DNA of 32,000 nucleotides, taken from assembly GCA_000503875.1 (NCBI GenBank), contig CP006913.1:1020001-1052000 (forward strand), written 5' to 3'. Under the pieces are notes generated by a model that was given only the letters and a program-made list of their open reading frames with translations, was not told the DNA's origin and did not search any database. The position numbers and the translations under genes are program-made. The DNA is from Candidatus Saccharimonadota bacterium. Its GTDB lineage: Bacteria; Patescibacteriota; Gracilibacteria; Absconditabacterales; Absconditicoccaceae. Each line of letters opens with the position of its first letter. The first letter of the stretch is position 1. Below are positions 1 through 32,000 of this stretch, one piece after another.

Positions 1-588
1 TTTTTTTTCAAAATCTTTAGATAACAATTCTGAATCTTTCAATGATTTTTCTACAATTCGATGTTTCAGTTTAAGTAATTCAATATGTGGACTATCTTTT
101 TTATATCCTCTTGGTGCAGTTTTTACGGCTTCATCATACAAATAAAACATATCTCATGCAAAGATCTTATCAATAATTTTTTGAAATTTCTTTCCTTCTT
201 CAGCTATTCAGGCTCTAATAATTTCTGTCACTTTAGACTCTGGCATATACAATCCTCCTGCGATAAAAGAGTTATTTCCTGGCTGAATATGAAGATAAAA
301 ACATGGGGCACCTTGTCTCTTTCCACTTTGAGAAATTTCTATACCAAAGTTCGTTTTATATGGGGTTTTATCTTTAGAAAATCTCGTATCTCTATTGATA
401 CGAAAAATACAATTTCCTGGTTTCATATCGTAAGGTAACTCAAAAAAATTGGAAATTTCATCAATCAGTTTCTGTGCTAATGCAAGAACTTGTTTCCTTA
501 TCACAGCATATTCTTCTTGATGACCATGAAACCATTCACGAGTATTATTGACCTCCAATGCTTCCAAAAAAGCCAAGATTTGTTTCAT
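1..588 (-). CDS. DUF2461 (TIGR02453-like) family protein; C-terminus runs off the window start
   Basis: ATG at 586-588. Track ORF 208..588 (MKQILAFLEALEVNNTREWFHGHQEEY...RINRDTRFSKDKTPYKTNFG) continues in frame through TGA at 208-210 and 154-156, read as Gly. The continuation reads ...KTAPRGYKKDSPHIELLKLKH... and has no TAA/TAG before position 1. Confidence 0.8.
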
Positions 589-757
589 AACAACATTTTT
601 AACAATAAATACTGATAATATATAAAGATTTTATGAAAGCTTTCAATTGCTGATAATTTTTACACTTCTCTTACACCTTATCCATATACTACCCACGCAA
701 TAATATATAAGAATACCAATCGGTATATTATGCGCTTTTATTCTTTATACTATCAAT

Positions 758-1138
758 ATGAAAAAATTAGTACTCGCATCTTTAATCGCCGTAGGATGAT
801 TAGCAGCAGTTTCTACATTTGCTTATCAAGGAACACCTGGTGTTCAAAATCCAAATCCTACAGATCCTGTAAGACATGAAGCAATGCAAAAAGCATTAGA
901 AACTAACAGTTACACTACTTGGAAAGAACTAATGGCAGGTAAAGGAATTCTCAACAAAATCACTACAGAAGAACAATTTAAATCGTTTATCGCTATGAGA
1001 GATGCTTACGCAAAAGGTGATATAACAACTTACAACAAACTAAAAGCAGAACTTTGACTTGGACAAAAAAACTGATCAGGACAAAAACAATGACTAAGAA
1101 ACGGTCAAAGAAATGGAATGGGAAGAAATAATAAATAA
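758..1138 (+). CDS. small secreted or anchored protein with Gly/Gln/Asn-rich tail (126 aa)
   Basis: ATG 758. Hydrophobic N-terminus MKKLVLASLIAVGGLAAVSTFA. Four in-frame TGA read as Gly, three of them in the tail ELGLGQKNGSGQKQGLRNGQRNGMGRNNK. TAA at 1136-1138, followed by a hairpin terminator. Confidence 0.7.
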
Positions 1139-1145
1139 ATGAAAT

Positions 1146-1172
1146 AAGAGGCTATTTAATGCCTCTTTTTTT
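1146..1172 (+). terminator. rho-independent terminator
   Basis: Stem aagaggc (1146-1152) pairs with gcctctt (1161-1167) around an 8-nt loop, followed by a T-run. Confidence 0.7.
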
Positions 1173-1299
1173 ATAATAAATTTTAAATGAGTGTTCTTTT
1201 ATTAGTGATTTTTGTATTCTATAAAATTTAAATTTAAGATTTGTTGACATTTATAAGAAAATAGATAAAAAATAAGTCTTTAATAAATCACGATAAACG

Positions 1300-1569
1300 A
1301 TGATAAATCCAAAAGAATTTAAACAAGTTTTAAGAGAAATTACCAAAAATGACCCTAATTATTCTGAAATAACACAAGAGATTTTAAAAAACTTAGATCA
1401 AAATTATTTAAATGAAACCGAACAACAAAACATCTTAACTTCTCAAATGAAAGATGAAATTTTTAAGATGATATCTATAAAACTACCAGAAAAATTTAAT
1501 TATGATAGACACTCTTTTATGAAACAAATCACAAACGCATTACAAGAAAAATGAATTACTTTATATTAA
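1300..1569 (+). CDS. hypothetical small protein (89 aa)
   Basis: Track ORF 1300..1554 continues through TGA 1552-1554 for 4 more codons (G-ITLY) to TAA 1567-1569. Confidence 0.55.
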
Positions 1570-3691: not shown

Positions 3692-4327
3692 ATGAAACAG
3701 CTTCTCATCGTTTTCACATTTGGATTATCTATCATGTTGGTTTGATGTACAAAAATTACAATAAACCCTACTGAAGATACTGAATTTCCACAAGAAACTA
3801 TTACAGAAGAGCCAGAAATTAAAGTTGATATGACAGACAAAAAACAAGTTATGGAGTATACACTAAGTGCACTTAAAGAGGAGAATATGGACAAATTGGA
3901 AACTGTGATAAGCAAAGATGGAGTGCGTTTTTCACCATATAGTTACATAGACACAAAAACACATATAACCCTCAAAAAAGAAGATCTCAAAGAAGCGTTT
4001 GAATGAACAACACAATACGTACGATGATCAGAAGACGGAACAGGAGATCCGATTCTCCTTACATTCAAAAACTATCTCAAGAAATATGTATACGATATAA
4101 ATTTCGAAAAACTTTCCGAGAGAAACTATGATACTATCGTTCAAAGAGGAAATACTATAAACAATATTGAAGATATATATTCATGAGCATCAACCGTTGA
4201 ATTCTTTATTCCAGGAATTAATCCAGAATATGAATGAATGGATCGAAGAAGTTTGACTCTTGTTCTCCAACAAGAAGACAATCAACGAAAAGTGAAAGCA
4301 ATTGTTCACAATCAATGGACAATATAA
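3692..4327 (+). CDS. lipoprotein, unknown function (211 aa)
   Basis: ATG 3692. Signal peptide and lipobox MKQLLIVFTFGLSIMLV-G-C, with the lipobox Gly encoded by TGA 3743-3745. Five in-frame TGA in total. TAA at 4325-4327. Confidence 0.75.
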
Positions 4328-4385: not shown

Positions 4386-4772
4386 CTACGCCACAGCTTC
4401 TGTGGTTTTTTTCTTTTTATCTTTGTCGATAAATGTCTTAATAAATCCATACGTTAATTTGGATACATCTTCTACTTGAGACATCAAATCATCACATGTC
4501 GATTGATCAATTTCTTGAATATCTTTTGCTACCAAAAGCAAAGTACGTACTTCAGAAGCTTTTGCTTTAGCCAAATAAAGGAACTCTTTAAATTCACCTT
4601 GAGATCGTCTTTCAAATCCTGCTGCAATAGCTGAAGGCACACTAAGCGCTGCTTTAATAATTTCATATTTCAAGGTAATATCGTCATTTTTCCCAAGCAT
4701 TGTAATAACAGATACAGCTAAAGATTGAGCTTTTTGCCAAGCAAGAATATCTGTAAAATCTTTTATAAGCAT
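4386..4772 (-). CDS. four-helix-bundle protein (23S rRNA intervening-sequence protein family, TIGR02436-like)
   Basis: Intact track ORF. FTDILAWQKAQSLAVSV...SAIAAGFERRSQGEFKEFLYLAKAKASEVRTLLLVAKD matches the family pattern as I remember it. TAG stop at 4386-4388. Confidence 0.8.
   Translation of the reverse strand: MLIKDFTDILAWQKAQSLAVSVITMLGKNDDITLKYEIIKAALSVPSAIAAGFERRSQGEFKEFLYLAKAKASEVRTLLLVAKDIQEIDQSTCDDLMSQVEDVSKLTYGFIKTFIDKDKKKKTTEAVA
4391..4412 (+). terminator. hairpin plus T-run after the lipoprotein gene
   Basis: ccacag (4391-4396) pairs with ctgtgg (4400-4405) around a 3-nt loop, followed by a T-run. It overlaps the 3' end of the convergent gene 4386..4772. Confidence 0.5.
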
Positions 4773-4824: not shown

Positions 4825-6372
4825 TTACTCAGATTCCACAAAAAAAGTTCTATTTCTATACTGCAACGATTCTGCCAAACAGGCAATATCTACCTGTTCT
4901 TTTTCCTCCATATCAGCAATAGTTCTGGCAAGTTTCATAATTCTATGAATTACTCTTGGCGAAAGAGTAAGTTTGTGGGCTGCTTCACTCAAAAATTCTT
5001 TACAAGCAGCATCTAATGGAATAAATTGAGATAAATGTTGTGATTTCATATGAGCATTTGCAGTCAACGATAATCAGACGAAACGCTGTTGTTGACGCTT
5101 CCACGCTACCAATACTTTTTGTCTGAGTGTAAACGAAGACTCTTCAACGCTGGTTGTCAACAGAGAATCAACTGGTATCCTAGGAATTTCCAAAATCATG
5201 TCTATCCTGTCCAAAAGCGGCCCAGATATTTTGCTTTGATATCTTTTGATGTCCGCAAACGAACAAATACAAGCTTTTTCCTTGTCTTTATAATATCAAC
5301 ATTTACAGGGATTCATTGATGCTACAAACATAAAATTTGCAGGATATTGAATACTTCATGATACTCTGGAAATGGTTATCATGCTGTCTTCCAATGGCTG
5401 TCTAAGAACTTCCAAAACTTCTCTCGGAAACTCGGTTAATTCATCAAAAAATAAAATTCCCTTATGAGCCAAACTCACCTCTCCAGGCGTCAACGCCGCA
5501 CCTCAACCAACAATAGAAATTTTGGATGCTGTATGGTGAATTTGCCTATACGGTCTTTGTAAAATCAAGGGCTGATCTTTATGTAATTTTCACACAACAG
5601 AATAAATCTGACTTACTTCTAGGATCTCTCCAAAAGAAAGGGGTGGTAATATTCATTGGATTGCTCTACTCAACAACGTCTTTCAACTTCCTGGAGCACC
5701 TACCAACAACAAGTTATGAAATCCTGCTGCTGCAATAGCCAATGCTCTCTTGGCAAAAAGTAGTCCTTTGATATGCTCAAAATCAACAGATCATATTTGT
5801 GTCATATCAAAATCTGGCAGTTCTTTCGGTTGATCAACTTTTTCCAACTCTTTGCCATACAAAAAAAATTCCAAAAGTTGATGGAAATGAGTAAGCGGAT
5901 ATAAAACAATTCCAGGAATATATTCTACCTCATAGATATTTTCTGCAGGAATAAAAAATGTCGTATATCCATGCTTTGCTGCATCTATGATACACGGCAA
6001 CAATCCATTTATCGGTTTCAAAGATCCATCAAGCCCTAGTTCTCCAAAAAATAGTGATTTCTCGAAAAATCTGGGGACAAAAACATGGTCCTCGAAAATC
6101 AAAAATAACAGTGCCACTGCCATCGGCAGGTCAAAACTTGTCCCCACTTTTTTTAAATCCGATGGTGCCAGATTCAAAATAAATTTCTTATTGGGAATCG
6201 TGATGCCCACATTTCTAAACGTTGCTCTAATCCTTTCTTTAGATTCTTTGATAGCAGCATCAGGGAGTCAAATAATTTCAATAGAAGGAATAGAATTATT
6301 TGCATCAGCTTCTACGATAATTTCATATCATTGCAGCCCTAGATGGGTATATGTCCTGATTTTTTGAATCAT
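4825..6372 (-). CDS. comM: Mg-chelatase-like ATPase ComM/YifB (515 aa)
   Basis: A single frame runs from ATG 6370-6372 to the stop at 4825. I hand-translated the parts not covered by track ORFs (6372-6211 and 5790-5068) and relied on track ORFs 5791..6210 and 4825..5067 for the rest; every break seen is TGA. Motifs: [18 protein letters not shown] (TGA 6268-6270), Walker A GAPGS-G-KT (TGA 5683-5685), Walker [34 protein letters not shown]. Confidence 0.95.
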
Positions 6373-6443: not shown

Positions 6444-7286
6444 CTATCGAGGAAGAAGCTCTAAAAAATTATAATAACTATTGGAATTATTTTTCATCGC
6501 ACAATAAAAATCCCAAAGATCCATGTATTTTACATTTTTATCAAACGATCCTCGATCAGGATCCAATGAATCAGTAAAATAAATTTTGGATCCTACAACA
6601 CCTTTTTGCCAATATATACTATACACCGTTACATAATGCGTATAATTACCAGACAGAGCAATTGTCACAAAAGGAGCTCGATTTACATAAAGAAAAAGCA
6701 TCATTTGTTTAAAAACAGCTAAATAATCTGTCATACTTTTTTGCAAACTAATCGTTCTCGCTTTTACAACATTTCTATCGGTGGTATTGGTATAATCTCT
6801 GAGTTTTGTGATAAGGCTTGAACCACCACATCCATTTTTAACAGTATATACTTGATTAACCGTTACAGGATATGTTTGACCACAGACTGCGGCAACATTT
6901 CCCGTACAAATTACATACGAAGTCCAAGAACAGCTAGATCCATCCGGTTGTCGAACATGACGATATCCCCATTTATAATTATCATAACACCGGAATGCAT
7001 AGGTAGGAATAGACAAAGCAGAAACAGCATCATTAATAGTGTTGTACATAAAATCACCACTTTTCTGAATATTATTTTCAGATTTATGACCGTAGTCCAA
7101 CACGTTTTCTTTAAAAAACTGATCTTCTTCTGGGACATACTCTCCCAAAGATTTGGGTCGCTCTTCATCAGACAAGACATCATCAACAAGATTCTGATTT
7201 TCATCAACAACATCTTCTTTTTGACACCCTGCTCCAAACAGAGTAATAATTCCCATTATCAACATGACAATAATTCTTGTTTTCAT
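6444..7286 (-). CDS. putative lipoprotein with papain-fold / C39-like cysteine peptidase motifs (280 aa)
   Basis: Intact under the standard code with no in-frame TGA. Signal and lipobox-like MKTRIIVMLIMGIITLFGAGC. Gln lies 6 residues before the candidate nucleophile (RQPDGSSCSWTS). His is in GNYTHYVTVYSI and Asp in YFTDSLDPD. TAG stop. The family call is from motif memory only. Confidence 0.7.
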   Translation of the reverse strand: MKTRIIVMLIMGIITLFGAGCQKEDVVDENQNLVDDVLSDEERPKSLGEYVPEEDQFFKENVLDYGHKSENNIQKSGDFMYNTINDAVSALSIPTYAFRCYDNYKWGYRHVRQPDGSSCSWTSYVICTGNVAAVCGQTYPVTVNQVYTVKNGCGGSSLITKLRDYTNTTDRNVVKARTISLQKSMTDYLAVFKQMMLFLYVNRAPFVTIALSGNYTHYVTVYSIYWQKGVVGSKIYFTDSLDPDRGSFDKNVKYMDLWDFYCAMKNNSNSYYNFLELLPR

Positions 7287-7552: not shown

Positions 7553-8686
7553 ATGACAAAATTAAAAGAAGGTTTAGATGAGAAGCTTAAGGCTCTGTCT
7601 CCCAATTTACAAAAGAAAATTTTTAAAGAAGGAAAAAACTCTTCTATGGGAATGCTTTCACCTGTATCAAAGTTCTTGGTAAATACAAAGAAACATTGTA
7701 ATGGGGGCAAAACTGTAGATGCTGGTTTATGGCTCAAAAGTCATTTGGACAACGATGGTAAAATGTTTTTAACCATGTCTGGTGCTGGCTCTTCATTCCA
7801 AATGGGAATACTTATTAGCGAGCTTATTCGCAAAGGTAAGGTTCATGGAATATCTGTAACAGGAGCAAACATGGAAGAAAGTATGTATCGCTATGTAGCT
7901 CACAGTCATTACGCGTATATCCCAAATTATAGCGAACTCACTCCTGAAGAAGAGAATGAGCTTCGTGAAGTAGGATTAAGAAGAATCACTGATACATTTT
8001 TGCCTGAAGAAGAGTCTGTAAGAAAAATTCTTCCGGCTTTAGAAACATTGTGGAGAAATGCAGAGGAAGAAGGGAATAAATATCTATGGCACGAGTATTT
8101 TTTCCAACTATTCGAAAGGAATTTAATTAAAAAGGATCCTGAAGCTAATGAAGATGATTGTTGGCTTTATCAGGCGTGGAAACACAAAATTCCAGTTTCC
8201 GTACCAGGTTTTGAAGACAGCACTATGGGAAATATTTTTACCCAAATGTGTTATGATGGAGATCATCCATTCCTTTCGAAATACAAGCTTGAAAAACCTA
8301 TCAGTACAACAATTGTTAAACCCGGATTTTCTTACATGCACCATCTAACTGAATGGTACATGGATACCTCCAAAGATTCACCAATTGCTTTTCTTCAATT
8401 AGGCGGTGGTATATCAGCAGATTTTCCAATTTGTGTCGTACCACATATAAAGCACGACTATTTGGAGGAAATCAAGGACATTAAAGAAAAAGACAAATTA
8501 GTACGACCTTGGGCTGCCTTTATTGAAATTCACTCCTCGCCCATGAGCTTCGGTTCATATTCTGGAGCTGGTTTCAAAGAAAAAATCACCTGGGACAAAT
8601 TTGCTCCCGATGCATTTGGCTTACAAATCTTTGGAGATTATACCGAACATTTTCCTGATATAGCAGCGATAATATTAGGAAAATAA
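7553..8686 (+). CDS. deoxyhypusine synthase family protein (377 aa)
   Basis: Intact under the standard code with no in-frame TGA. DHS-like motifs: TMSGAGSSFQMGILISELIRKGKVHGISVTGAN, LQLGGGISADFP, SYSGAGFKEKITWDKF. TAA stop followed by a terminator. Confidence 0.85.
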   Translation: MTKLKEGLDEKLKALSPNLQKKIFKEGKNSSMGMLSPVSKFLVNTKKHCNGGKTVDAGLWLKSHLDNDGKMFLTMSGAGSSFQMGILISELIRKGKVHGISVTGANMEESMYRYVAHSHYAYIPNYSELTPEEENELREVGLRRITDTFLPEEESVRKILPALETLWRNAEEEGNKYLWHEYFFQLFERNLIKKDPEANEDDCWLYQAWKHKIPVSVPGFEDSTMGNIFTQMCYDGDHPFLSKYKLEKPISTTIVKPGFSYMHHLTEWYMDTSKDSPIAFLQLGGGISADFPICVVPHIKHDYLEEIKDIKEKDKLVRPWAAFIEIHSSPMSFGSYSGAGFKEKITWDKFAPDAFGLQIFGDYTEHFPDIAAIILGK

Positions 8687-11321: not shown

Positions 11322-11951
11322 ATGAAAAATTTTCTTTTTTGATTAATTCTATGATGAATTATTGTTTTTTGATACTTCTTTATCAAAGAAAATCCAGAGA
11401 ACAGTTATGTTGTCCAAACAAAAACACGAATAAATAATATGTTTAACAAAACATCTCCTGTTGGAATAGCAAATCCTGCTTCAACATATTGTATTGAAAA
11501 CAATTGAACATTAGAAATTAAAGATGAATCTGAAGGACAAATAGGTATATGTACATTTTCAGACTGATCTTCTTGCGAAGAACGAGCATTTTTTAGAGGA
11601 GAATGTAAACCTGGGATAACAACATGAACACAAACAGACAATACTATTGAGCAACCAATTGAAGAGCCAACTATTTGTACTATGGAATACGCACCAGTAT
11701 GTGCAAAAGTTGCTATACAATGTATCAAAGCTCCTTGTGAACCAATAGAACAAACTTTTTGAAATAGATGTTCTATGAATGCAAATAAATTAGCTACATT
11801 CCTTCACGAAGGAGAATGTAAAACAGACCAGAAAGAATGTCCACAATATGCTCCACCAAGTCCAGATTTCTGTACAGAAGGAACTATTCAGGATTGATGA
11901 ACAGACCAAAATGGATGTCAGTTACCTCCAAAATGTGTAACAAAAGAATAA
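11322..11951 (+). CDS. membrane-anchored DUF333 + Kazal-type inhibitor-like + Cys-rich domain protein (209 aa)
   Basis: ATG 11322. The TM anchor MKNFLFGLILGGIIVFGYFF contains 4 TGA-Gly. DUF333-like segment: IANPASTYCIENNGTLEIKDESEGQIGICTFSDGSSCEERAFFRGEC. Kazal-like segment: CTMEYAPVCA...TFGNRCSMNANKLATFLHEGEC. C-terminal Cys-rich tail. TAA at 11949-11951. Confidence 0.8.
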
Positions 11952-11975: not shown

Positions 11976-13415
11976 ATGGAACAAATTATCTGACATTCAA
12001 TCCTCGATCAATATTTCGATGAACATACAATGTCACTTCATCTCAAAGAGAATAGCCCAATTGTCCAAAAAAAATGAGCACCAGGAAATCGACAACCTGT
12101 ACTTAGTGATACTATTATCAGTAAACAAGATATAACAAAACTTATTGATACTATTTACCAGGAAATCACCGAAAGAGATGATTGATTTTTGGAAATAGAT
12201 AGAAAACTTTCCAAAGTAGTACAAATTGGTCCATACAGAATAGTTATTGTTTATCCACCACTTTCTGATGGATTAGAAATGACTGTTGTCAAACCAACCG
12301 TAAGACTTAGTATTGAAGATTATAAACTTAGTCCAGAAACATTTGATCTACTCAAAAACAAAGCAAAAGGAATTTTAGTTTCTTGAGCACCAGGAAGTGG
12401 AAAAACAACTTTTGCTCAAGCACTTATTGATGTTTACAACAAAGAACACAAAATAATTAAAACAATTGAATCTCCACGTGATCTTCAGTTGCCAGAAAAT
12501 ATTGTGCAATATAGTTTTACGTATGGAACTCACGACGAAGTAAGGGATATTCTCCTTCTATCAAGACCTGATTATACCGTATATGATGAAGTAAGAAACA
12601 AATCTGATTTTGATCTCTATAAAGATCTAAGATTAACCGGAATTTGATTGGTGGGTGTTATTCATGCAACAAGACCAGTTGACAGTATCCAAAGATTTTT
12701 GGGAAGTATCGAAATGGGTATTATTCCACAAGTTATCGATACTGTTGTATATATCGACAAATGAGTAATTCAAGAAATTTACAATCTTGCATTGACGGTT
12801 AAAGTTCCTGAATGAATGATGTCAGAAGAATTAGCGCGTCCAGTGATAGTGATAACAAGCTTTCTCACCAAAAATACGGAATACGAAATTTATACGTTCG
12901 GAGAGCAAATTGTTGTGATGCCCGTATGAGAAAACCACGAAGGTGGTTGAGCAACTCCTCATCCAGCAAGAGTTTGAAGACAAAATGCAGTTTCTGAGTA
13001 TGCAAAAGAAGCTATAGTTCAAAAACTCAACAAACACATTGCCTGTGATTTCTTTACAAAAGTCAAAGGAACTAGCGTTGATCTCTATATCCCAGAATGA
13101 TATAAAGGACGTATCATAGGAAAAGGTTGAACAGCAATAAATGATTTAGAAAAAAACATAGGACTTAATATCAATGTAAAATCATTTGATGATCTCCCAT
13201 TATTAGACGACAAGGTAGATATTATGGAATGAAAATGACATCTTGATATTGCATTTCCTCAAAGTTTTGCACAAAAAACCGTACAAGTCTTAGTATGAGA
13301 CGAATTGATTAAATTACAAACTGATGCAAATGGAATTTCTTCAATAAAAGATAAATCATTAATCAAAACCATACAAAAAAGATGATTTGTAATTATCGAT
13401 GAAAGTAAACTATAG
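11976..13415 (+). CDS. PilT-family ATPase with C-terminal KH domain (COG1855-like), 479 aa
   Basis: ATG 11976, TAG 13413-13415. [38 protein letters not shown]. Walker A is [19 protein letters not shown] (TGA 12384-12386). [13 protein letters not shown] GxxG is [24 protein letters not shown] (TGA 13128-13130). I could not recognise a PIN domain in the roughly 75 N-terminal residues. Confidence 0.9.
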
Positions 13416-13474: not shown

Positions 13475-14881
13475 ATGACTAATTTCCATTTTTGAAAATT
13501 AATTGCCGGAGTAAGCCCAACATTAGCCAAAGAAACAGTTCTTTCCAAAATTATTAATATGGTAGATGTATTCAAAATCAGTCTATGAGGAGGTTTTGAT
13601 GATAATAACAAAAAATATATCGATACGCTTATGAAGCTTGATAACAGCAAAACTATTATGTTGGAAACAAGAGGAAACGATATTAGAATAAAAAATGTTG
13701 TCGATATTAAACTCAAAGACAAACAAAAAATTGAAGTAGAATATTCTGAATATGCACAAGAACATGATCAAAAAATTTTTATTGACGCAACATTTCTTTC
13801 TCAACTAAAAAACAACCAAGAAATTGTTTTTGAACAAAGTTGAATAAAATTAAAGGTTAAAGAGGTAAAAGAAGATTTGGTGGTATGTGAGGTTTCTCAA
13901 GGAGGAGATCTTATTCAATATGACAGAGTTTTCTTTCCAAAATTTTATCCTGAAATTCCTTTTCTAGGAGAAAGAGAAAAAAAAGATATTTTACGAGGAT
14001 TAGAATACGGAACACACATTATTGCTGCATCACTAACCAATTCAAAAGATAATGTTTTTGAATTAAAGGAATTTCTTGCAAGCCAAAACTCAGAAAAAAT
14101 GAAAATTTTTGCAAAAATAGAAACAGAAAAAGCATTAGAAAACATAGACGAACTTATTGAAGCAGCTGACGGAATAATCTTGGTTAAAGAAAAGCTTGGA
14201 AATTTATTAGATGAAAAAATAGAAAACGCCATAATCAAAAAATGTAAACAAGAAGGAAGACCAATAGTAATTACATTTTCACTTACTCAAAAAAGAAATA
14301 ACAAAGGGTGTACTATCAGCGAAACAGAAATTAAAAAATATTGCTGACAACAAATAGATTGTTATATGTTAAATACATTGCTCAAAGAAGAAGATACCCT
14401 AAATATGATTACAGATATTTCTGAATGATTAGAAAAACATGAACTTTGTACTCCTCATGAAAGCTTGGGTGAATTTTATAAAGACGATGAAAATTTTTTG
14501 GTGAGAGATTATATCATCTACAACGCATATAGAATCACTAAAGAAGTAGATGTAAAAGCTATTGTTTCATATACAGAAAATTGATATACATCAGCTAGGT
14601 TGTCATCTTTAAAACCACAAGTACCGTTGATTGCATTTACCAAAGTAGATGAAACATACAGATATATAAATATGCTTCGATGAGTTAGAGGATACAAGAT
14701 TTCTCAATCCTTCAACTACGAAAATCTCAAAAGAGTTGGAAAAGAAATGATTAGAATTATTTTCAAAGGAAATATTTCTCTTGATGACAAAATTATCATT
14801 GTACAAGCAAACGAAATCATTAAAGATGAAAAAACAGGTATGATCAATTGAGTAGAACTATATAAATTCAAAAACATTTAA
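13475..14881 (+). CDS. pyk: pyruvate kinase-like protein, highly divergent (468 aa)
   Basis: ATG 13475, TAA 14879-14881. One frame fuses track ORFs 13631..13843 and 13877..14347. PK-like blocks: KLIAGVSPTL, IMLETRGNDIR, EREKKDILRGLEYGTHIIAASLTN, IFAKIETEKALENIDELIEAADGII, and a C-terminal regulatory-domain-like VKAIVSYTENGYTSARLSSLKPQVPLIAFT. Confidence 0.8.
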
Positions 14882-15371: not shown

Positions 15372-16928
15372 ATGTCTTCTAGATTAGTTATAAAGGACGC
15401 AGCTCGACAATTAATTTGAAGGGTAATTAGTGCTCTTTTTGGATTTTTAACAATAAAAATAATGACACCATATCTTGGTCCGCTGAGATATGGAGATTAT
15501 TCAACAATTTTAAAATATTTCGCAATTTGGACAGCATTAGCAGATTTATGATTATATGTCTTAGCAGTCAAAAGACTCTGAGAAATCAAAGAAAAAAGCA
15601 ACGATCCAGAACACAAAGAACTCAAAGACGAATACGGAAAATTTGTAGGAACAAGATTAACTATTATGTCTGTAATTTATATAATTGCTATTCTTGTAGC
15701 TTATCTTTTGCCAGCATATACCAGTAATCCATATATTATTCGATGACTTCCTTTGGGAATGATTTTTTCTGCTAGTTTTATGTTTGCTGGTATTCAACAG
15801 CTTCCTCTCCAACTTTTTTGGAAAATGGAACGACTTAGTTTATCGTTAATAACAGCTAGATTATCACAATTATTAATTCTGGTTCCTTCAGTCTATTTCT
15901 TTTTCAAATACGTAGATTTTTCTACACCAACCAAACTTTCCATAGCAGCATTCTGTATGATTTTAATTTCTGTAGTAGCAAGTGGTATCTGACAAAATCT
16001 AGAAATACATTATAGAGCAAAAAAACTATTGCCACTAAAAATTAAATTTGATCGATCATTTACCAAAAATATTATTAAAAGTAACCGAAGATACGGAGTT
16101 TCATATTATCTTAGTAGTTTCCATACGCTTGTAGTGTTGATGTTTTTGGGACGATATTTTCCAACTTCCAAAGGAATTGATTATGCCGGAATATGGGCGC
16201 TTGCTCTATCATTAATAGAAATACTTCTTATTATTCCATCTTCGTTAGGAAATAGTTTGCTCCATAAAATATCAGGGTATCAGCTAGAAACAAAGCTCAA
16301 AAGCATGTGAAGTCTTCTCAATATGATTCTATGGATAGGATGATGTGTAATGATAAATTTTTGGATATTTTCTAGACAGATTATCGAATTTGTATGATGA
16401 GAAAAATTTATAGGAACATTCGAAAGTACGCAACATCGATGATCCGATCAGATATTACCTTTTTTGTGAGTTGTTTTGTTCTTCAGTTTTATCAAACAAG
16501 TATACAACTACCTCTTCGTAACAGTAGATAGACAAAATGTTCTCTTGGGAATCAATGGAATCGGAGTAATTATTTGAATTTGACTAGGAATCTTCGCGAT
16601 TCCCAAACGATGACTGGCATGAGGAGTACTTACTCAAGTAGTGATAGAATTTTTGTTTATGACATGAGCAATTTTAGTTGCTAGAAAAAATAAAATATCT
16701 CCAATCAAAAACTTTTCTCAAACAGCAAAGATTCGAGGGATTTTAGTTTTTTGAGCTGTTTTTGGATTTTTGATAAAAACATATATCAATCCAAGCAATC
16801 GAACTCGATTTCTATGGGCAATAGGAATGAATTTAATCATTTTAGGAATTTCACGAAAAATGCTGAAACAAACAGCTCGCTGACTTGGTATTGAAGATCC
16901 TATTTCAGAAAACAAAGAAATATATTAA
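15372..16928 (+). CDS. MOP-superfamily flippase (Wzx / polysaccharide biosynthesis protein-like), 518 aa
   Basis: ATG 15372. One frame fuses track ORFs 15753..15992 and 16029..16310 via many TGA. N-terminus AARQLIGRVISALFGFLTIKIMTPYLGPLRYGDYSTILKYFAIWTALADLGLY. Roughly 12-14 hydrophobic segments. TAA at 16926-16928. Confidence 0.85.
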
Positions 16929-18002: not shown

Positions 18003-18887
18003 ATGTATCTTATTGTTTTTGTCCTAGGAACACTGTTCTGATCGTTATGATCTGTACTTCTAACAAGATTGGAAGACAAAGTTGATCGATCCACCATCAA
18101 GGGAATTCTTTTTGGATTTTCGAAATGTCCTCATTGTGGAAAAAGGCTCCAAGCAAAAAACTTAATTCCCCTAATAAGCTTTTTCTTACAACAAGGAAAA
18201 TGCTCTTTTTGTAAAAAACAAATTTCACGACAATATCCAATTTTAGAAATAGCTTCTGGACTGATTTTTCTATTTTCTTATTATTTCGTGTTTGATGTAG
18301 GGAGTTATCTTATTCCACAAGGACTACATCGAATAAATTATGCTTTTCGAGCAATAACCAACCGATGATTGCTTTTGCTTATTGTTCAAGATATCAAAAA
18401 ACAAGAGCTTCATATGCCTATACGAATATTTACAACAGCACGAATTTTGCTTCGACAATTTCTTGGATTTGTAGGACAATACCAATGAGCCGTTATTGCT
18501 TCATTGCTATTCGCTGGAATATGCATGTTGATTTATTTTTGAGCAAAACGATATATCAAGCGAAAATATCACAGCGCCCAAGAAGGATTCTGACAAGGCG
18601 ACATTTTTCTGTGATTCGCATTGGGCGCTGCAATACCCTTTGTGGAACAATTTAATGCTCTTCAAATTTCGCGACAAAATCATCTCAAAACAATAGGAAG
18701 TATAATTTTTATTGCAGCTATTTTGGGTCTTATTTACGCAGGAATTGCTTGGGTTACAAAACAGCAAACAAGTATTTCAATAGACAAGAAGCACAAAATA
18801 ATTGTTCCATTTTTTCCAACGCTTATTCTTGCATTTTGGATTATGTTACTTTATGCAGATCATATTATTTCTTATCTCTTCTTATAA
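18003..18887 (+). CDS. pilD: prepilin peptidase (peptidase A24, PilD-type), 294 aa
   Basis: ATG 18003. The frame fuses track ORFs 18069..18368 and 18621..18887. Cys cluster CPHCGKRL...CSFCKKQISRQYPILE. First Asp block VQDIKKQELHMP. Second Asp block GF-G-QGDIFLGFALGA (TGA 18591-18593). VPFFPTLILAFW. Confidence 0.9.
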
Positions 18888-19889: not shown

Positions 19890-20816
19890 ATGAAAAAAAT
19901 AATATCATGACTTCTTGTATTAATGATTGGCCTATTTTCTGTTGTTGTTAATGCACAAGGATTAGGTGATTTAATCGATAGCTTAGGAAGTGAAATCAAT
20001 TTTTGATATACAACTACCGAAAAACTCACTATCAAAGAAATAACTGACCAAAAAGTAATTATCGAGTCACCTATTATCAAAAATCAAAGCAACGAAAATA
20101 TTACAAAATACACAGTTATGTACAGCGAATTTCCTTTAACAGAAATTTTAGAAGATACTAATTTGTTAAACCAAACGAAAGAAAAATCTTTTGATATTAC
20201 AGGAACAAACAACTCTTTCACTATAGAATTAGGAACTGCTGATTGAATAGATATCATCAAAAAATATTATCTATTTGTAATACCAAAAGACATTAATGGA
20301 AATCTAGGTGAAGTTTCCAATGAAATACGATTTAATATAGCCGAAAAAACATATGGAGATGCATGATCAAGTGAAATATACACAACAACAGCGGTTCATA
20401 ATGCTGCTGGTGCAGATATGACATTAGCAAACATTACTCATGGAATCAATGGAAGTACAATTACACTAAGATGGATATCAATAAATGGAAGTTCAACAAT
20501 TGATTTGTCTGTGATGACCCCTGGATCATCCTCATTCAATAGAGTTGCAACAATAAATATGAATGATGAAAGTTATTCTTTTGTAGCAAGTAGAAATGGT
20601 GAATATATTTTTCAATTTACTCCAGATAACTGAGGGAAGCAAGTAAATTACACCGTACAAATTAACACTATTTCTAGCTCGGCTGGTGGTTCACCAGGAT
20701 GAAAGGTCATTCCAGTAGTTCCAAAAACATGAACAGAAGAAAATATTTTAATAATCTCTATTATTGCATTTCTTTGATACATAATTTACAGAAAACTATA
20801 TAGAAAAGCAAAATAA
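19890..20816 (+). CDS. cell-surface protein with signal peptide and LPXTG-like (VPKTG) sorting signal (308 aa)
   Basis: ATG 19890. Signal MKKIISGLLVLMIGLFSVVVNAQG. Two beta-rich segments that look FN3/Ig-like. C-terminus VVPKT-G-TEENILIISIIAFLGYIIYRKLYRKAK, i.e. motif, hydrophobic helix and basic tail, with the motif Gly at TGA 20730-20732. TAA at 20814-20816. Confidence 0.75.
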
Positions 20817-24203: not shown

Positions 24204-24809
24204 TTAAGATAAAAGTTCATCACGAATTCAATGAAGAATTGATAGTTCGTTAAGCTTCTTTTTGGCATTAAAGAGAGTTGTTCAAACTGAGTTTTTGTTC
24301 GTTCAAAGCATATCTGCAATTTCTTCATATGATTTTTGTTCTTGATAGGCAAGATATAGTATTTCCCTTTGTTCTAAATCTAAATAAGTAAGCATTTTTT
24401 CAAAGATTTTTTGTTTGAAAGAGGAATGAAGACGGTGTTTATGTTCATCAATATAGGCTAAACTCTCTTTGAGATATGTTTGATCCAAGGAAACATTTGA
24501 ATACGTTTTATTTGCTCTTATCCAATCAATAGCTATATTATGTGCAAGACGATAAATAAATCACCTAACATTGGTTAAAGATTGTATTTTGATATATTCA
24601 TAGAGTTTTATAAATACATCACTTGTCAAAGAAACAGTATCGTCATAGTTATAATTAAGGAGATTCCATAGATACGCATATATTTTTTTATGTCGTCTTT
24701 CATATAATTCCTCGAAAGCAGCTACATTTCATCTCTGTACGTCCAAAACCAACTGTTCATCAGACAGAGAAGAAAAAGAAGCAGCAAAAAAGGATATTTT
24801 TCTCATCAT
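24204..24809 (-). CDS. RNA polymerase ECF-type sigma-70 family factor (201 aa)
   Basis: ATG 24807-24809. Region 2: SDEQLVLDVQR-G-NVAAFEELYERRHKKIYAYLWNLL...VR-G-FIYRLAHNIAIDWIR. Region 4: LDLEQREILYLAYQEQKSYEEIADML-G-TNKNSV-G-TTLFNAKKSL. TAA at 24204-24206. Confidence 0.9.
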
Positions 24810-25046: not shown

Positions 25047-28000
25047 ATGGCAAAAAAACCACATCAAAAGAAAGATTCGGCATTACAAATAACACAACAA
25101 GACACCGAACAGACCAATAAATCACTATCTAAGATAGCTAACAATAAAATTGAGGAATCACTCAAAGAATTTTCTAAATTAAGTGAAAAAGAAAGAGATA
25201 AGTTTCCTTGAAGCAAGGAATTTTTCGAACAATTTTGGGAATATTTTAAACAACAACATCCAAATTTATTAGACGAAATAGACAGTCAAGAAAAACTTAC
25301 CATTTATGTTCAAAATCTTGAAGAAAAAGGATTTTCTATAGAAAATCTTATGAAAAATTCCAAGGAATTACACAAAGACTTTAAAGAAACAAATAACGAA
25401 AAAGAAAGTATTGTCGAAAGTCTAAAACAATTTCAACAACATTGCAACAACCCAGAAAACAAGATGCCAGCAAACATCTTCAATGATTTTGCAAATGACA
25501 TTAATCTAAAAACTACACCAAATATTAGTATAGACAAAAAAACCAAAATATCCAAAATAGGAAATCTTTTTTCTGTTTGGACAAATTATTTAGAAAATAA
25601 TTGAATAAAACTAAAAGATCATCAAAAATCTGAGGCAGAAAAAATTTTATGTCCAAGATATGTACCAACAGAAAGACTCCTGATCAGTGCCACAATCAAA
25701 AAAATCAAAAAAAATCTTCCAGACACACTCATAACAGATTTCGAAGCAGCATTTCCCTTGCCAATAGATATCCATTCCTCATTTGAAAATCTCAAAGATC
25801 TCAAACAACAACGAACACTTTTTCTTGATGGACACAAAAATGTAATAGATGAAAATCTTGCCAAGAAGTTAGACAAAATAATAATTACCAACTGAGATGT
25901 ATATAAAGAACTTCAATATGAAGGAGAAAAAATAGAACGGACAAAATGATTTGGTGAACAAACCGAAAATTTTAGAAGAATGTTTAATTCTTTGGCAACT
26001 CGTCAAATATTTGACGACACAAAAGAAGCTGGATCTTATATAGAACACCATCTAGAACTACTTGGAAAAGAATTCAAAGAATTTCCTCCATATTTTAACG
26101 AATTATTCAACATCTACCCTTATAAACACAAAGATGTAATAGAAAATCAACCAGAATTTAAAACAATATATCAACAACAAGAATCGCTTTTACAAGAGAA
26201 AGAAGCTCTTTTAAACAAAGAAAAACCAGAAAGCGAAAAAAACAAATCTTTGGAACAACGAAGAGAGGAAAATTATCAAGAAGTACTCAAAGCAAAAGAA
26301 GATCTAAATGCTATCAAACGAAAAGCTTATGCAGCATATATTAATCAAAAAAATCCAGAATTGGGAACTATGGTAAGCGCTCTTGTGGAAAATAAATTTG
26401 ATATGGCCAAACTTTCCAAATCTGATCAACAAAAAATAGTGAATATTTTGGTAACAAAAAAATTGGGCGATAGTATCAAAAATCAAATTCCCCAGACACT
26501 AAAATTAGATCCAAAAGAATACAAAGAATTCGTAGAGAATCTCTTTGATCTCAATCAACAAGATATCGTTATCCCGACACAATACGGAAATATCCCCCTC
26601 CATTTTCTAGAAAAAAGTTTTTTTTGAGGACCAACAAAAGAAGCAATGGAAATCAACAATTCAGGGACTATAATAACTGAAAAGCATAATTTACCTCTGA
26701 ATTTTAAAGTAGAAATTACTGAACAAAATAAGGAATTTTTTGAAGACAATATCATATTTGATGATCTATTCAAATCATTTAATAGCAAAAAATGACCAGT
26801 AAGATTAAATGATAGTTATAAAGTATCTATCAAACGTAAAGATTGAACTAGCGTAGAATGATATCTTTCTCAACAAATACCAACAAAGGAACTTGAAGAG
26901 GAAATAGAAAGTGGGGCTATAAGAAATGGATGGTTTCTTTATTCGCAACCTATTACAAGACCTGAAGATGCTGATGAAAGAAAAATTATCACGCGAGAAT
27001 GAACACCAGGAGGAACACCAGTAGCTATACCAGAAACCAAAGAAAATGAATATGATATAGATATTGTTTCCAAAGAAATAAATCTGAATGGAGAAGCTAT
27101 CTGAGCTTTGCTATTTTCGCATACTTTAGGTCAATATAATGTAAAGAATGACCTTACTAAAGATCAAGAAAAAAAACTTGCACAAAAATTTGGTAAATTA
27201 GACAAAAACACTGTCTACAAAGATGTAGATGTATTAGACAAAATAATAGATCAAGATAAAAGACAAGAAGAAAAACCTAGAGAAAAAACCAGAGAAAAAG
27301 AATATGAAGAATTTTTAGAAGAACGAAAAAATCTAAGAGGATATCAAGAAAAAGGTAAGTCAGAAGAAAAAACATATGGATTCAAAAAATGAGCAAAATT
27401 ATTGATACAATGACCAGAAAGTTGATTTGAACCAATATGATCTTTCCAATATATTAATGCGGAAATCAGTAATATAGACAAGGAATTAGGTGTTTTTAAG
27501 GTGAAATTTACAGGAAGTGAGCAAAGCTTAGGAAAATATGAAGGAACGGAAAAACAATTTTCTCTTGCAAAAAAATGATTACAAAAATTTAAAGATGTAT
27601 TTGAAGAAAACAAAATTTTCAAACTTCCAAACGAAAATATATGTAATGACATAAAGAGCGTAATATCAACATTTGAAGATAATAAAATAGATAATGTAGA
27701 ACCTGGAGCAAGTTTTCAGTGAACAAGTCGAAATGGAAATAATTTTGTAATAGATATGGGTAAAGAAGAGTGAAAAGAAGTAACTCATTTTGGGGTTATA
27801 GAGACATTACCTGGCGAGAGTCAAAATGAAGAAAGCAAAACAGGATATATGTACAAAATAGAACACGAACCATTAAAAAAACGCTTTAAAGTTATTGCTA
27901 ATGACAAAGAAAAAACAACTATACACTTGGATTATCCAAATTTTGTATTATTTGTAGCGAGCAAAAAACTTCAACCAAAAACAGAAGAATCTTCAAAATG

Positions 28001-30338
28001 AATAGATATTCCAGAAAAAGAATGACCAACTATAGATAAACCCAAGAAACGAAAATGATACAGTATAGCCAGTGTGCTTGGATTAGTCAAAAATTTTGGA
28101 AAAAAAATAGGTGATAGTTTAAAAAAATACGAAGAAGAACAAATAGAAGAATTAACAGAAGATATGTTTTTTCATGGAAAGCTTTTTCATAAACTAGCGT
28201 GAATTATGCCAACCAAAAAACTTCAAGAATCTTTTGAAAATGTAGGAGACGAATATCTTATAGAAAGAGACAATAAAGTTTGGAAAAAAATAGAAAAATA
28301 TCAAAAATTTTACGAATCAGATCCTGATTTTGGTGGTGATTATCTTTGGACACAAAGGATCCAACCATATTTAGAAGGCAAAAAACCTTTTAAAGATCAT
28401 CATCAAGCTGCGGCCATGTTATTGGCTACAACAAAGAAATGAAAAGGTCCATATAGTAGAAATACTGATCGAGCAGGAAAAGGAAATCGAGTAAGGATTC
28501 TTTTTGGAGAATGACACCAAAAAAGATATCTTTTGATGAAAGAAAAGCTTCAAAGAGAGTTAGATCAAGGATACAAAGTACACGGTCAGATATGGGCAGA
28601 TAATCTCCAAAATGAAATATTAAAATTGGAAATGAAATATATTACCCATTGTATAGATGGAAGACAGTTAAGAGTCGGATGATCAAACGACGATACACCA
28701 CAATTAGAAGGAATGTATTCAAAAAAATTTGCTTCGACATTAGAAGAAGAAACAAATAAATTTTTTTCCGAATCAGTAAGTGGTAGCTCAAAAGAAAAGG
28801 GCTATAGTTTTGAACTTGCCAGATTTGAATATTTTAGATTATTAGCAGATAGACCTCAACAAGCAATTCCTTGTCTCAAACAAATTGCAGCCAAAGCAGT
28901 GACACCTAATCAATGGAGGGTATTTGAAAGCGCTGTTTTGACAGGAATGTTATCATGAGCTTTTTATAACATTACCCAAGAAGACAAAAGTTTTATTCAA
29001 AAAATATGTAGAGCTATTGGATTTTTACCAGGTATGTGGATTAGAGATCCAAATCATCACCATAAAGTAGAACATTTTATCAAAATAGCCACAGGAGAAG
29101 ATATAGTTTGATATGAGAAAAAAGATGATAAAATAATACCATACAAAAGTGATAAATTTTGATTTTGAAAATGAAAAGATTTAGATCAATTTAAGAAAGT
29201 TGCTGGATATGATAATGGATTAAATTTACGACTTACATGATCAAAAAAAGAATGAGCGCCAAGTCGTCTCAAACAAATTGCTGAATTTGCTGCAATGAAA
29301 TGACAAAATTTCGAATGAAAATCTCTTATTGAATTAATTAATGATCCAAGAACCCCAATAGAAACAATATATCTTCTCAAAGAAATAGAAAAAAGAAGTT
29401 TAGAAAAAGATGAAGAAGTTGATCCAGATATCAAAATGAATGGATACGGACTAGAACAAAATATCTTGGCAAAAAACCAGAGTCTTATAGATGAGATTAC
29501 TGATTTTCAAGAAGGTAAATTTAAAGGAAAAAATAAAGATGAAATTCAATGAATTCAAACAGCACGAAGTAGAATAGCAAAAGACATTCCAAGAAAAGAA
29601 ATAAAAGACAAGAATCAAGTAATCTATCTCCTTAAAAAATTTATGAATTGGTTTGAAGGAAGATGATTTAATACAGAAGAAAAGAAATTTCTTGTAAGGA
29701 CGTTATTAACAGCAAAAGAAGAAATAAATAAAGGTCACTGACAAAGTGCTGATGAAATGTTGTGGTATGTAACTGTAGGAAATATTGTAAAAAATTCTGG
29801 AAATGGACAAGCACCAGACGAATTAATAAATGGACTCGAAGCGTTCAAAGATTTTTTCAAAAACAACTTAAATACTATTCTTGAATCAGATGTAATAGAA
29901 CAAAGCTTGGGAAGTATGTACCTTGAAGCAAAAAACAAATGAGCTTTTGAAGTAGGACCTTGGGAAGAATATGTTGATCTCACAAAAAATAAATTTTTTA
30001 TAGGAAGATCCAAAGAAGAAAATAAAATAAGAAATGAGAAACAAAAAAAATATAAAAATCCCGAAATAATTAATGAAAAAATATATGAAATTGCAAAACA
30101 AGTAAATCAAAGAAACCACATAGAAAATAAATTTGATAGATATTTCAATCTTGACGCTACGAAAACAATATCTGAAAAGCTTCATGAAACTCTTGAAAAG
30201 AAAAATATTCGTTTTAAAAATCCAGAAACTGCAGGGAAAATAAGACATATTCTTTCTGAAAAAGATAATTCAGAGAACCTTTCTGATGATGATTTGGCTG
30301 CTGCTGCTCAAATGGAAGAAGATCAATATTATAGTTAA
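25047..30338 (+). CDS. giant orphan protein, 1763 aa, Lys/Glu-rich, no recognisable domain
   Basis: ATG 25047. I translated the whole frame by hand. It has no TAA/TAG for 1763 codons and 37 in-frame TGA by my count. It fuses track ORFs 25350, 25980, 27108, 28206, 28713 and 29757. TAA at 30336-30338. No signal peptide or TM-length hydrophobic stretch was noticed. Confidence 0.8.
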
Positions 30339-30381
30339 TAGTTTTTTTAACAAAAAAATAAGCATTGCTGCTTATCTAGAT

Positions 30382-31275
30382 TTAATTCGAGGGATGAGGG
30401 GATTGAACCCCCGACTGCGGTTCCGAAGACCGTCATGTTACCACTACACCAATCCCTCATAGATTGAACTGCCCTTAACTTTTCATCAAAAATTTAACAA
30501 TTCACGACTGTATTTGATCAAGAACTTCTTGTTTACCTTTTTCTGGTATCTGGGTATCAGACAACAAAAACGCAACAAGCTTATCTCTCATCTCTTCAGT
30601 GAAAGCTTTTTTACTTATTTTCTCAAACTTTTCAATAGCTTCGTGCCATTTAGCAAATACTTCCAACAACTCCCAATCATTAGAAGATATTTGATAAATA
30701 ATTCCATTATTTGTTTCTACAAGATCTTTTTTGAGAAAGAGTCCTTGCTGTTGAAGCTGTATAATAATTTCATCTAAATATTCTTGATAATGCAAATATT
30801 GTCAAAACAAAGGAAGCTGAATTTTTATGGACATCAATTCCCCTGCTTTCGATTCAAATTTTCCGTATAACAACGTTAATCCATACAACAACGATATTTT
30901 TTCTTCTATTGAATCAAATTTCCAGTTACAAGGCGCAGGAATCACAAAATCTACATCCCCGCGTGCCCCTGGCCAAAAATACTTCTGTTCCCCGCTGACT
31001 TCGTCAAACGATACAAACAACCCATATCCCTGCGCCATTGCATCACTTTTCAGATTCAACAATCAACATCCAGAATTTTTTACAAAAATCAAATTCATTC
31101 AATCACCAAAATGTTTGAGATTAACTAATTTAAAATCTTTTTTATGAAGAACAACCATTCATTTATCTCGATCAGAAAATTGATACCCAGCAACCTGATA
31201 GGTATATTGTTTTACCTGAAGTATTTCTGGGTGTTCAACGCACAACAAATTATGCTGATCAATGACAAGTTTCAT
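30382..31275 (-). CDS. hypothetical protein downstream of grpE; under code 25 the frame reads through the tRNA gene
   Basis: ATG 31273-31275 (MKLVIDQHNLLCVEHPEILQ...). It fuses track ORFs 30802..31062 and 30502..30795 via TGA. The protein-like sequence ends ...EVLDQIQS at TGA 30502-30504. The next TAA/TAG in frame is 30382-30384, beyond the tRNA. Confidence 0.55.
30388..30458 (-). tRNA. tRNA-Arg (anticodon UCG), 71 nt, no encoded CCA
   Basis: Minus-strand sequence: GAGGGATTGGTGTAGTGGTAACATGACGGTCTTCGGAACCGCAGTCGGGGGTTCAATCCCCTCATCCCTCG. It has a 7-bp acceptor stem (GAGGGAT with ATCCCTC), U8, A14, GG in the D-loop and a T-loop TTCAATC. The anticodon loop CTTCGGA gives UCG. There is one A-C mismatch at the top of the anticodon stem. 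Confidence 0.8.
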
Positions 31276-31306
31276 AGACACACAAATATAAGATAAACAT
31301 TATTAT

Positions 31307-31933
31307 CTATGCTCAAATAACAACTTTGCTAGGTACAATAACTGTTCTTTGACCGTTTCTTTCTATATAGAATCCTTGTTGAAAAACTTGTACGATTTTA
31401 CCTTTTTGAGATTCATCCTCTACTGGCAATGTAGATAACGGTTCATGTAATAAACTATCAGGAGCAAGTCCCAAAGATTCAATAGGATAAATATCAAACG
31501 ATGCTAATGTTTTTAACATATTGTCATATACCATTTTTACTCATTGGACAAAAGAATCATTATCCTTTGTTGTATCAGTATGATCCAAGGAAGATTTAAG
31601 CTGATCTATTACTGGAAAAAGCTTTTTCATGTATTTAATTAAGGTATCTATTTCCATTGATTTTTCTTTTTCCAAAGACAATCTCTGTAATCTATCAAAA
31701 TCTGTTTTTAGGTTTATATAATCATACTGAACTTTTTTGGCTATATCCAAAGCCTCTTGTTTTTCTTTTTCCAACAAAGAAATTTTTTCTTTATATTCAT
31801 TTTTTTGTTGTTCAGAAGAAATTGTTTCTTCATCAAGTTTATCTTGTTGAACTTTTTTCAAAGCTTCTTCCAAAGAAGTATCTTCTTGAGAGATTTTATT
31901 CTCATCTTTTTTATGTTCGTCTTTTTTTGTCAT
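31307..31933 (-). CDS. grpE: nucleotide exchange factor GrpE (208 aa)
   Basis: ATG 31931-31933. Track ORFs 31541..31933 and 31313..31534 are joined by TGA 31541-31543. Motifs: YDYINLKTDFDRLQRLSLEKEK, LFPVIDQL, GVKMVYDNMLKTL, SLLHEPLS, VQVFQQGFYIERNGQRTVIVPSKVVI. Then TGA 31313-31315, Ala and TAG 31307-31309. Confidence 0.9.
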
Positions 31934-31936
31934 AAT

Positions 31937-32000
31937 TTACAACAAATAATCATCTAAAACAGTTTGTTGAACCGCATACCATTCTGCAAAAGATTGGTTA
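31937..32000 (-). CDS. 3' end of an upstream gene (partial), product unknown
   Basis: Open frame entering from the window edge, ...NQSFAEWYAVQQTVLDDYLL, with TAA at 31937-31939, 3 nt before the grpE start. Too short to identify. Confidence 0.35.
   Translation of the reverse strand, partial: NQSFAEWYAVQQTVLDDYLL

Follow-up and report, generated by a model that had tools for sequence, protein, structure and literature searches.

Glycine-coding UGA and tryptophan-like CGA and CGG codons in a chromosomal segment of an SR1 bacterium, with two adjacent genes of standard-code signature

NCBI translation table 25 (Candidate Division SR1 and Gracilibacteria code), in which UGA specifies glycine, only UAA and UAG remain as stops and the other codons are standard, is reportedly to be credited to Campbell 2013 and Rinke 2013 alongside Kantor 2013. 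The present study concerns the reading of UGA, and of the codons CGA and CGG, in a stretch of 32,000 nucleotides (hereafter the window: positions 1,020,001 to 1,052,000 of contig CP006913.1, assembly GCA_000503875.1) that appears to be chromosomal DNA of the candidate division SR1 (Absconditabacteria) bacterium RAAC1_SR1_1. The closed genome of this organism, with a GC content of 0.31, was reported to use UGA as a glycine codon and to carry a tRNA-UCA gene with almost identical counterparts in other SR1 genomes, and its annotation under table 11 gave 2,288 short open reading frames (ORFs) (Kantor 2013, PMC3812714). Later papers have treated the glycine assignment as a clade-wide trait. A second reassignment, of CGA and CGG to tryptophan, was predicted for Absconditabacteria with Codetta, together with a rule by which a tRNA(UCG) that has G73 and lacks A20 is a provisional tryptophan acceptor (Shulgina and Eddy 2021, PMC8629427), and a 2026 paper took this reassignment in Absconditabacteria as given.

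The window agrees with table 25 in reading UGA as glycine, in having only UAA and UAG as stops and in belonging to a small AT-rich genome, and the organism is the published RAAC1_SR1_1 itself. It differs in that table 25 leaves CGA and CGG as arginine codons, whereas in most window genes, two adjacent ones at 6444-7286 and 7553-8686 being exceptions, they behave as tryptophan codons. With the Codetta code for Absconditabacteria (PMC8629427) the window shares both reassignments and a tRNA(UCG) having G73 and lacking A20; it differs in that CGA almost equals TGG in frequency (70 and 84 codons in the window genes, besides 6 CGG) and two gene families are off-code. Table 4, the code of Mycoplasma and Spiroplasma, likewise gives UGA a sense meaning in genomes that are reduced and AT-rich, and restores ORFs in the same manner, but the amino acid in the window is glycine and not tryptophan, and the change lies in an extra tRNA-Gly(UCA), according to Kantor 2013, with no change in tRNA-Trp.

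Taken together, and with high confidence, the window is read as RAAC1_SR1_1 DNA in which UGA would be decoded as glycine by a dedicated tRNA-Gly(UCA), presumably present and glycine-charged outside the window as the literature suggests, with a presumed loss of release factor 2 (RF2) and termination left to UAA and UAG only. TGA is exchanged freely with GGN between relatives, and CGA and CGG would have been taken over as tryptophan codons, probably read by the tRNA(UCG) at 30388-30458, which has G73 and has lost A20. The assignment to this organism is supported by identity of the ComM and deoxyhypusine-synthase-like (DS-like) proteins of the window to P148_SR1C proteins of RAAC1_SR1_1 (100% for the latter; for ComM, P148_SR1C00001G0939 in GenBank, identical except at 10 TGA positions, where GenBank has glycine), and the relatives found are metagenome-assembled genomes (MAGs) of SR1/Absconditabacteria. 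An earlier reading made from the letters of the window alone (the sequence-only reading) had named the SR1/Absconditabacteria code, which these identities bear out. Because UGA as glycine was published in 2013 for this very genome (PMC3812714), that part of the reading is a correct rediscovery.

In order to assess the role of TGA, stop-to-stop ORFs in the whole window were compared between table 11 and codes in which TGA, TAG or TAA was each made sense. Under table 11 the longest ORF has 379 codons, and ORFs of at least 200 amino acids account for 3.4 kb; these figures rise to 1782 codons and 30.5 kb when TGA is sense, while ORFs are not restored when TAG or TAA is made sense instead. Read in the same way, 100 dinucleotide-preserving shuffles of the window, whose GC content is 30%, gave no ORF longer than 284 codons and a coverage of 169 bases on average with TGA as sense. 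The claim that the standard-code ORF track is misleading is therefore sound. Breaks were also said to be TGA, never TAA or TAG, and the gene set agrees: it comprises 28 non-overlapping genes, 27 of which have their ends inside the window, and contains 196 in-frame TGA codons (spread over 25 of the 28 genes), whereas TAA and TAG never occur in frame. Each of the 27 complete ends is a TAA or a TAG, leaving UAA and UAG as the remaining stops. TGA makes up roughly a third of the glycine codons in the window, or about 36% outside 6444-7286 and 7553-8686.

The three long ORFs given as examples by the sequence-only reading were recovered at 4825-6372 (minus strand, 515 codons, 10 TGA), 15372-16928 (518 codons, 18 TGA) and 25047-30338 (1763 codons, 37 TGA), and all eight TGA positions that it cited lie in frame within the motifs named for them, those at 5683-5685, 6268-6270 and 24729-24731 on the minus strand. 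Re-calling genes by translation table, as it had proposed, gave ORFs of equal length for codes 4 and 25. In proteins with X in place of TGA, Pfam domains span the TGA codons end to end, as in Mg_chelatase (model positions 1-204 of 207); matches were obtained for DUF2461, ComM (ChlI, Mg_chelatase and Mg_chelatase_C), DUF333, the T2SSE+KH ATPase, pyruvate kinase, Polysacc_synt, peptidase A24, sigma-70 and GrpE. The warning that table 11 would miss essentially everything was overstated, since four genes without TGA, at 2047-2373, 4386-4772, 6444-7286 and 7553-8686, are whole under that table.

The amino acid assigned to UGA was examined in ComM, a YifB-type Mg-chelatase-like AAA ATPase (4825..6372, minus strand) that matches the PDB ComM structure 8rxd at 7e-94 and contains no CGA or CGG. 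Its best 120 homologues are SR1 proteins already translated with glycine at TGA, which would make the comparison circular; they were replaced by 147 representatives of 50%-identity clusters, all at most 51% identical to the window protein. Among these, glycine is the commonest residue in eight of the ten TGA columns, five of which are near-invariant (145/146, 146/147, 132/146, 145/147 and 145/146), in line with the earlier expectation of glycine-dominated columns. Summed log2-odds over the TGA columns are +27.5 for glycine, -22.7 for serine and asparagine, the next best, and -24.2 for tryptophan. In the 8rxd structure, five of the nine aligned TGA codons face glycine and none faces tryptophan.

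Pfam scoring of nine concatenated Pfam-positive proteins gave the same result: summed over 12 families, translation of TGA as glycine led tryptophan by 84.8 bits. Mg_chelatase (+24.8 bits), PK_C (+14.5) and DUF333 (+13.7; 66.2 bits with glycine and 52.5 with tryptophan, reaching 71.2 when CGA and CGG are in addition read as tryptophan) gained most. GrpE scored 78.3 bits with glycine and 72.0 with tryptophan, Polysacc_synt scored 49.6 bits with glycine and was lost with tryptophan, and the number of families detected in the concatenated proteins dropped from 43 to 16 when tryptophan replaced glycine.

At the codon level, the window was compared with two syntenic SR1 contigs (L001 and L004). Window TGA codons face TGA at 58 positions (42+16), GGN at 25 and TGG at one; conversely, TGA codons of the relatives face GGN in the window at 53 positions and TGG at none. 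Thus TGA interchanges with GGN 78 times in total, TGA is paired with TGG in one case of 97, and TGG positions stay TGG. In a wider survey of GTDB genomes, which covered about 36 Absconditabacteria loci and was based on the unambiguous residues of each column, 1548 TGA codons occupy columns averaging 62% glycine, as compared with 73% for GGA and 69% for GGT, and glycine ranks first in 81 of the 131 informative columns that hold the window's own TGA codons. On these three comparative grounds, none of which relies on existing annotation, and as far as such data reach, UGA is established as a sense codon for glycine, and tryptophan is excluded; the claim that this is not a Mycoplasma-type code stands on the ComM columns, the Pfam totals and the interchange with GGN. 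An ARAGORN search of 38 loci of relatives found no tRNA(UCA), tRNA(CCA) or tRNA(UCG), the only tRNA genes there being tRNA-Ser(GGA) and tRNA-Arg(CCU).

The sequence-only reading had placed the whole window under code 25. The glycine part of this claim stood, but CGA and CGG behave as tryptophan codons in most genes. Against the relatives, CGA and CGG of the window face TGG eight times, AAA four times and AGA never. In the survey of Absconditabacteria loci, 370 CGA and 137 CGG codons lie in columns averaging 53% tryptophan, as compared with 66% for TGG itself; CGA columns have a tryptophan majority in 173 cases and an arginine majority in 3, while CGT, CGC, AGA and AGG are all found in arginine columns. 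Reading CGA and CGG as tryptophan instead of arginine raised the score in all seven Pfam families whose domains contain such codons, the gains adding up to 18.6 bits. In pyruvate kinase the sequence M-L-CGA-TGA-V faces IVWGV, containing the WGV motif, of the Staphylococcus aureus enzyme (alignment to PDB 3t05), and the CGA columns of the flippase (15372..16928) and of the prepilin peptidase (18003..18887) are tryptophan in relatives. In the orthologues of the DS-like gene from two other genomes (L058 and L059), the invariant DAGLWL is encoded as DA-TGA-L-CGA-L, and 6-7 CGA or CGG codons occupy invariant tryptophan columns. Because CGA and CGG behave in this way, translation by table 25, as in GenBank, puts arginine at about 76 probable tryptophan positions.

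The sole tRNA gene, and the sole RNA gene, found in the window by ARAGORN and Rfam is a tRNA(UCG) at 30388..30458 on the minus strand, scoring 59.9 bits in the Rfam tRNA alignment. This alignment shows G1-C72, the discriminator G73, G37 and a D-loop reading AGUGGUA, so that position 20 is U and the arginine determinant A20 is lacking; an A27.C43 mismatch atop the anticodon stem leaves that stem with 4 bp. The gene thus has the combination of G73 without A20 that marks a provisional tryptophan acceptor under the published rule, and it is a likely candidate for a tRNA-Trp that would be charged with tryptophan and would read CGA and CGG.

The second part of the whole-window claim that did not hold concerns the two genes at 6444-7286 and 7553-8686, which carry a standard-code signature. 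The first (6444..7286, minus strand) encodes a 280-aa lipoprotein with the lipoprotein signal ..LFGAGC. It has no TGA among 17 glycine codons, and of its six CGA or CGG codons four to five lie in arginine or lysine columns and none in a tryptophan column. Its AlphaFold model (predicted local distance difference test score, pLDDT, 71) matches papain-like cysteine peptidases, namely UfSP, the C39 domain of PCAT1, Der f 1 and IdeS, and a papain-like cysteine peptidase fold is predicted from this model. The family is small, with 18 proteins among 5.8 billion; it has neither a Pfam match nor a relative among IMG/VR viral contigs, and the homologues found all come from a code-25 setting. Its genes usually adjoin ComM in conserved synteny, and the flanking ORFs that could be assessed are rich in in-frame TGA.

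At the DNA level about 19 distinct members of this family, 27-90% identical, were compared (the window, L001, L004-L008, L042-L047 and L050-L055). They contain no internal TGA among approximately 244 glycine codons. TGA codons occur in only three members (L042, L043 and L050), near the TAA or TAG of orthologues, directly after the conserved C-terminus in two and one residue past it in the third. The TGA share of glycine codons is 0.02 in this family versus 0.11-0.71 in 32 other families, out of 33 in the sampled loci. In the first 11 members, 39 CGA and CGG codons share their columns with lysine (36 residues) and arginine (23) and never with tryptophan; across the family these codons are never found in TGG columns and otherwise lie in arginine/lysine or variable columns. 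The residue R99, invariant in alignment A1, is encoded by CGA or CGG in most members and by another arginine codon in three.

Three simple causes of this pattern were considered for the lipoprotein family. Too little time since horizontal gene transfer (HGT) is ruled out, because interchange between TGA and GGN in neighbouring genes is near saturation in the same genome pairs. High expression or codon bias could not suffice, as it leaves the CGA and CGG codons in arginine columns unexplained. Origin from a standard-code donor or a phage is unsupported, given the lack of a Pfam match, of an IMG/VR relative and of any homologue outside a code-25 setting.

The adjacent DS-like gene (7553..8686, plus strand; Pfam DS) has no TGA among 28 glycine codons and a single CGA, in an arginine-dominated column. 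It was compared among the window, L056 (5001-6119), L057 (5001-6110), and L058 and L059 (both 5001-6119). In the three SR1 genomes represented by the window, L056 and L057 there is no TGA among 85 glycine codons, against a TGA share of 0.33-0.36 in the flanks; tryptophan is always TGG, and CGA lies in arginine columns, as in GL-CGA-RITDTF versus GLRRITDTF. In the other code-25 lineage, that of L058 and L059, the orthologue is part of an ornithine-decarboxylase/agmatinase operon and shows complete recoding, TGA standing for glycine and CGA occupying invariant tryptophan columns. Homologues in standard-code Patescibacteria are 60-77% identical, and the gene is missing at the syntenic position in relatives. 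A recent transfer from standard-code Patescibacteria is therefore plausible for this gene, considering these homologues, the absence from the syntenic site and the recoded copies in L058 and L059.

Several observations weigh against the combined reading of UGA as glycine and of CGA and CGG as tryptophan. The evidence for tryptophan at CGA and CGG is comparative throughout. CGA reaches 72 per 10,000 codons in the window, which exceeds the figure of fewer than 37 that Shulgina and Eddy 2021 gave for Pfam-aligned columns of the clade (PMC8629427). The pyruvate kinase barrel is the only Pfam family that favours tryptophan at TGA, by 2.8 bits, and the presence of CGA and CGG in arginine/lysine columns of two gene families is unexplained by one uniform decoding.

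This last observation would be accommodated if CGA and CGG were ambiguous, translated as a mixture of arginine and tryptophan at an intermediate stage of reassignment that tolerates their use in columns of both kinds, which we regard as improbable. Tryptophan columns in most genes and arginine/lysine columns in two do occur in one genome, and Shulgina and Eddy allow for ambiguous translation (PMC8629427). However, the split goes by gene family and not by the tolerance of positions, the coincidence of arginine/lysine usage with complete avoidance of TGA is left unexplained, and R99 would be half-mistranslated in most members of the lipoprotein family.

Somewhat less probable still is plain table 25, in which UGA alone is reassigned and CGA and CGG mean arginine throughout. 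This is how GenBank translates the TGA codons, ARAGORN labels the tRNA(UCG) as arginine by its anticodon, and the columns of 6444-7286 and 7553-8686 conform to it. But outside those two families the CGA and CGG columns and their majorities point to tryptophan, as do all seven Pfam families with such codons in the domain, interchange is with TGG and never with AGA, and the tRNA(UCG) lacks A20.

A Mycoplasma-type code, in which a tRNA-Trp(UCA) decodes UGA as tryptophan, has a very low probability: it yields ORF lengths identical to those of code 25 and is favoured by the pyruvate kinase barrel, but the log-odds in the ComM columns, the Pfam total, the interchange of TGA with GGN and the constancy of TGG columns are all contrary to it. 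That the in-frame TGA codons reflect pseudogenes, sequencing errors, selenocysteine or programmed read-through without any recoding is practically discounted, having nothing beyond the codons themselves in its favour, whereas they occur on invariant glycines in nearly all genes, keep their positions in relatives and are accompanied neither by in-frame TAA or TAG nor by a SECIS or any other Rfam element, the tRNA apart, in the window.

Other genes of the window were also identified. Its left edge cuts off a DUF2461 protein gene (1..588, minus strand) whose start is at 588; this gene has two in-frame TGA codons and one CGA, matches Pfam at 1.5e-60 over model positions 1-192 of 208 across the TGA codons, and gains 3.6 bits when CGA is read as tryptophan. 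A predicted lipoprotein (3692..4327, plus strand) has five TGA codons, one of them in the lipobox L-V-TGA-C at 3743-3745. Downstream of the DS-like gene on the plus strand lie genes for a DUF333 protein (11322..11951; 10 TGA and 2 CGA; Pfam match), a COG1855-like T2SSE/KH ATPase (11976..13415; 16 TGA, including those of the Walker A motif at 12384-12386 and of the KH GxxG at 13128-13130; 36 orthologues at 52-87% identity), pyruvate kinase (13475..14881; 8 TGA and 2 CGA; Pfam match), a flippase of the Polysacc_synt type (15372..16928; 12 CGA; Pfam match) and an A24 prepilin peptidase (18003..18887), the latter with 7 TGA, including that of the G-x-G-D motif at 18591-18593, and 11 CGA in membrane segments. 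One homologue of the COG1855-like ATPase, 44% identical, lies in a contig titled Woesearchaeota (L037).

Further along, a surface protein (19890..20816, plus strand) ends in a C-terminal sorting signal, P-K-T-TGA at 20730-20732, with a hydrophobic stretch and then a basic tail behind it. A sigma-70 family factor (24204..24809, minus strand) uses TGA for all five of its glycine-type codons. The 1763-codon ORF (25047..30338, plus strand; 37 TGA and 12 CGA or CGG) has no Pfam match and no assigned function, and a GrpE gene (31307..31933, minus strand; Pfam match) has two TGA codons. Starts taken from the longest ORFs overlap neighbours at two places, 16925-18097 (minus strand) with 18003-18887 (plus strand) by 95 bp and 23816-24328 with 24204-24809 (both minus strand) by 125 bp; the true starts are probably internal, for example at MKQII, codon 36 of the 390-codon ORF. 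The two remaining genes without TGA are a 108-aa ORF without Pfam match (2047-2373, minus strand) and, downstream of ComM, a 23S_rRNA_IVP family gene (4386..4772, minus strand; PF05635 at 1.6e-20). Both have few glycine codons, and the lack of TGA may be due to chance; the TGA share in the IVP family is 0.13.

For annotation, it follows that gene calls, domain scans and defence-system scans of this contig need UGA as glycine, and that table 25 needs CGA and CGG as tryptophan added, without which nearly half of the tryptophan residues are annotated as arginine. Both points are already known for the clade and are confirmed here. Public Joint Genome Institute (JGI) table-11 calls on the relatives L044 and L057 illustrate the warning about this table, with ComM in three pieces, UvrD in four and PHP fragmented, the TGA-free lipoprotein and DS genes being the only long intact ones. 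In the ComM alignment, tryptophan is present in one or two database homologues at the otherwise invariant glycine columns 35, 230, 261 and 290; these are probably proteins of organisms reading UGA as glycine that were deposited with a table-4 translation. The title 'uncultured Candidatus Peribacteria bacterium' is given to many GTDB MAGs (L005, L008, L012-L014 and others) whose 63-87% identical orthologues contain TGA in frame; these are apparently Absconditabacteria under a wrong taxonomic label.

The part of the window that deserves specialist attention is the pair of adjacent genes at 6444-7286 and 7553-8686, which read as standard code inside a recoded genome. The nearest parallel is found in phages of Gracilibacteria and Absconditabacteria that are compatible with code 11 and avoid in-frame TGA, while prophages there use code 25; chromosomal genes of the TGA-avoiding kind were not described (PMC10746230), and a literature search found no further precedent for chromosomal standard-code genes. 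Like the genes of these phages, the pair lies in a code-25 host, lacks in-frame TGA and is readable under either code. Unlike them, both genes are chromosomal and use CGA and CGG as arginine, and 6444-7286 is in conserved synteny beside ComM and without an IMG/VR relative.

Genes nearly free of TGA were also observed in relatives whose loci have a TGA share of 0.57-0.65, at 18687-20303 (minus strand) of L033, 11805-13523 (minus strand) of L031 and 42-1337 (plus strand) of L032. A PmbA/TldD-like peptidase has no TGA with 28 GGN in L033 and one TGA with 30 GGN in L031, and a TPR protein has no TGA with 16 GGN. Standard-code-like genes may thus form a recurrent minor class.

It is suggested only tentatively, as a possibility that we consider doubtful, that 6444-7286 and 7553-8686 are held in standard code by selection and are not simply recent imports; the pair may reflect selection for standard-code readability, a code-gated product, or unsampled recurrent HGT. 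If selection were the cause, some chromosomal genes of a recoded bacterium would need to be readable in the standard code, possibly for expression in a prey or host cell, through continual exchange with standard-code elements, or to give a 'code-gated' protein active only in another cell. A conserved SR1-specific family kept in standard code within a doubly recoded genome would bear on the idea of recoding as a genetic firewall, and also on the contact of predatory or episymbiotic bacteria with standard-code cells.

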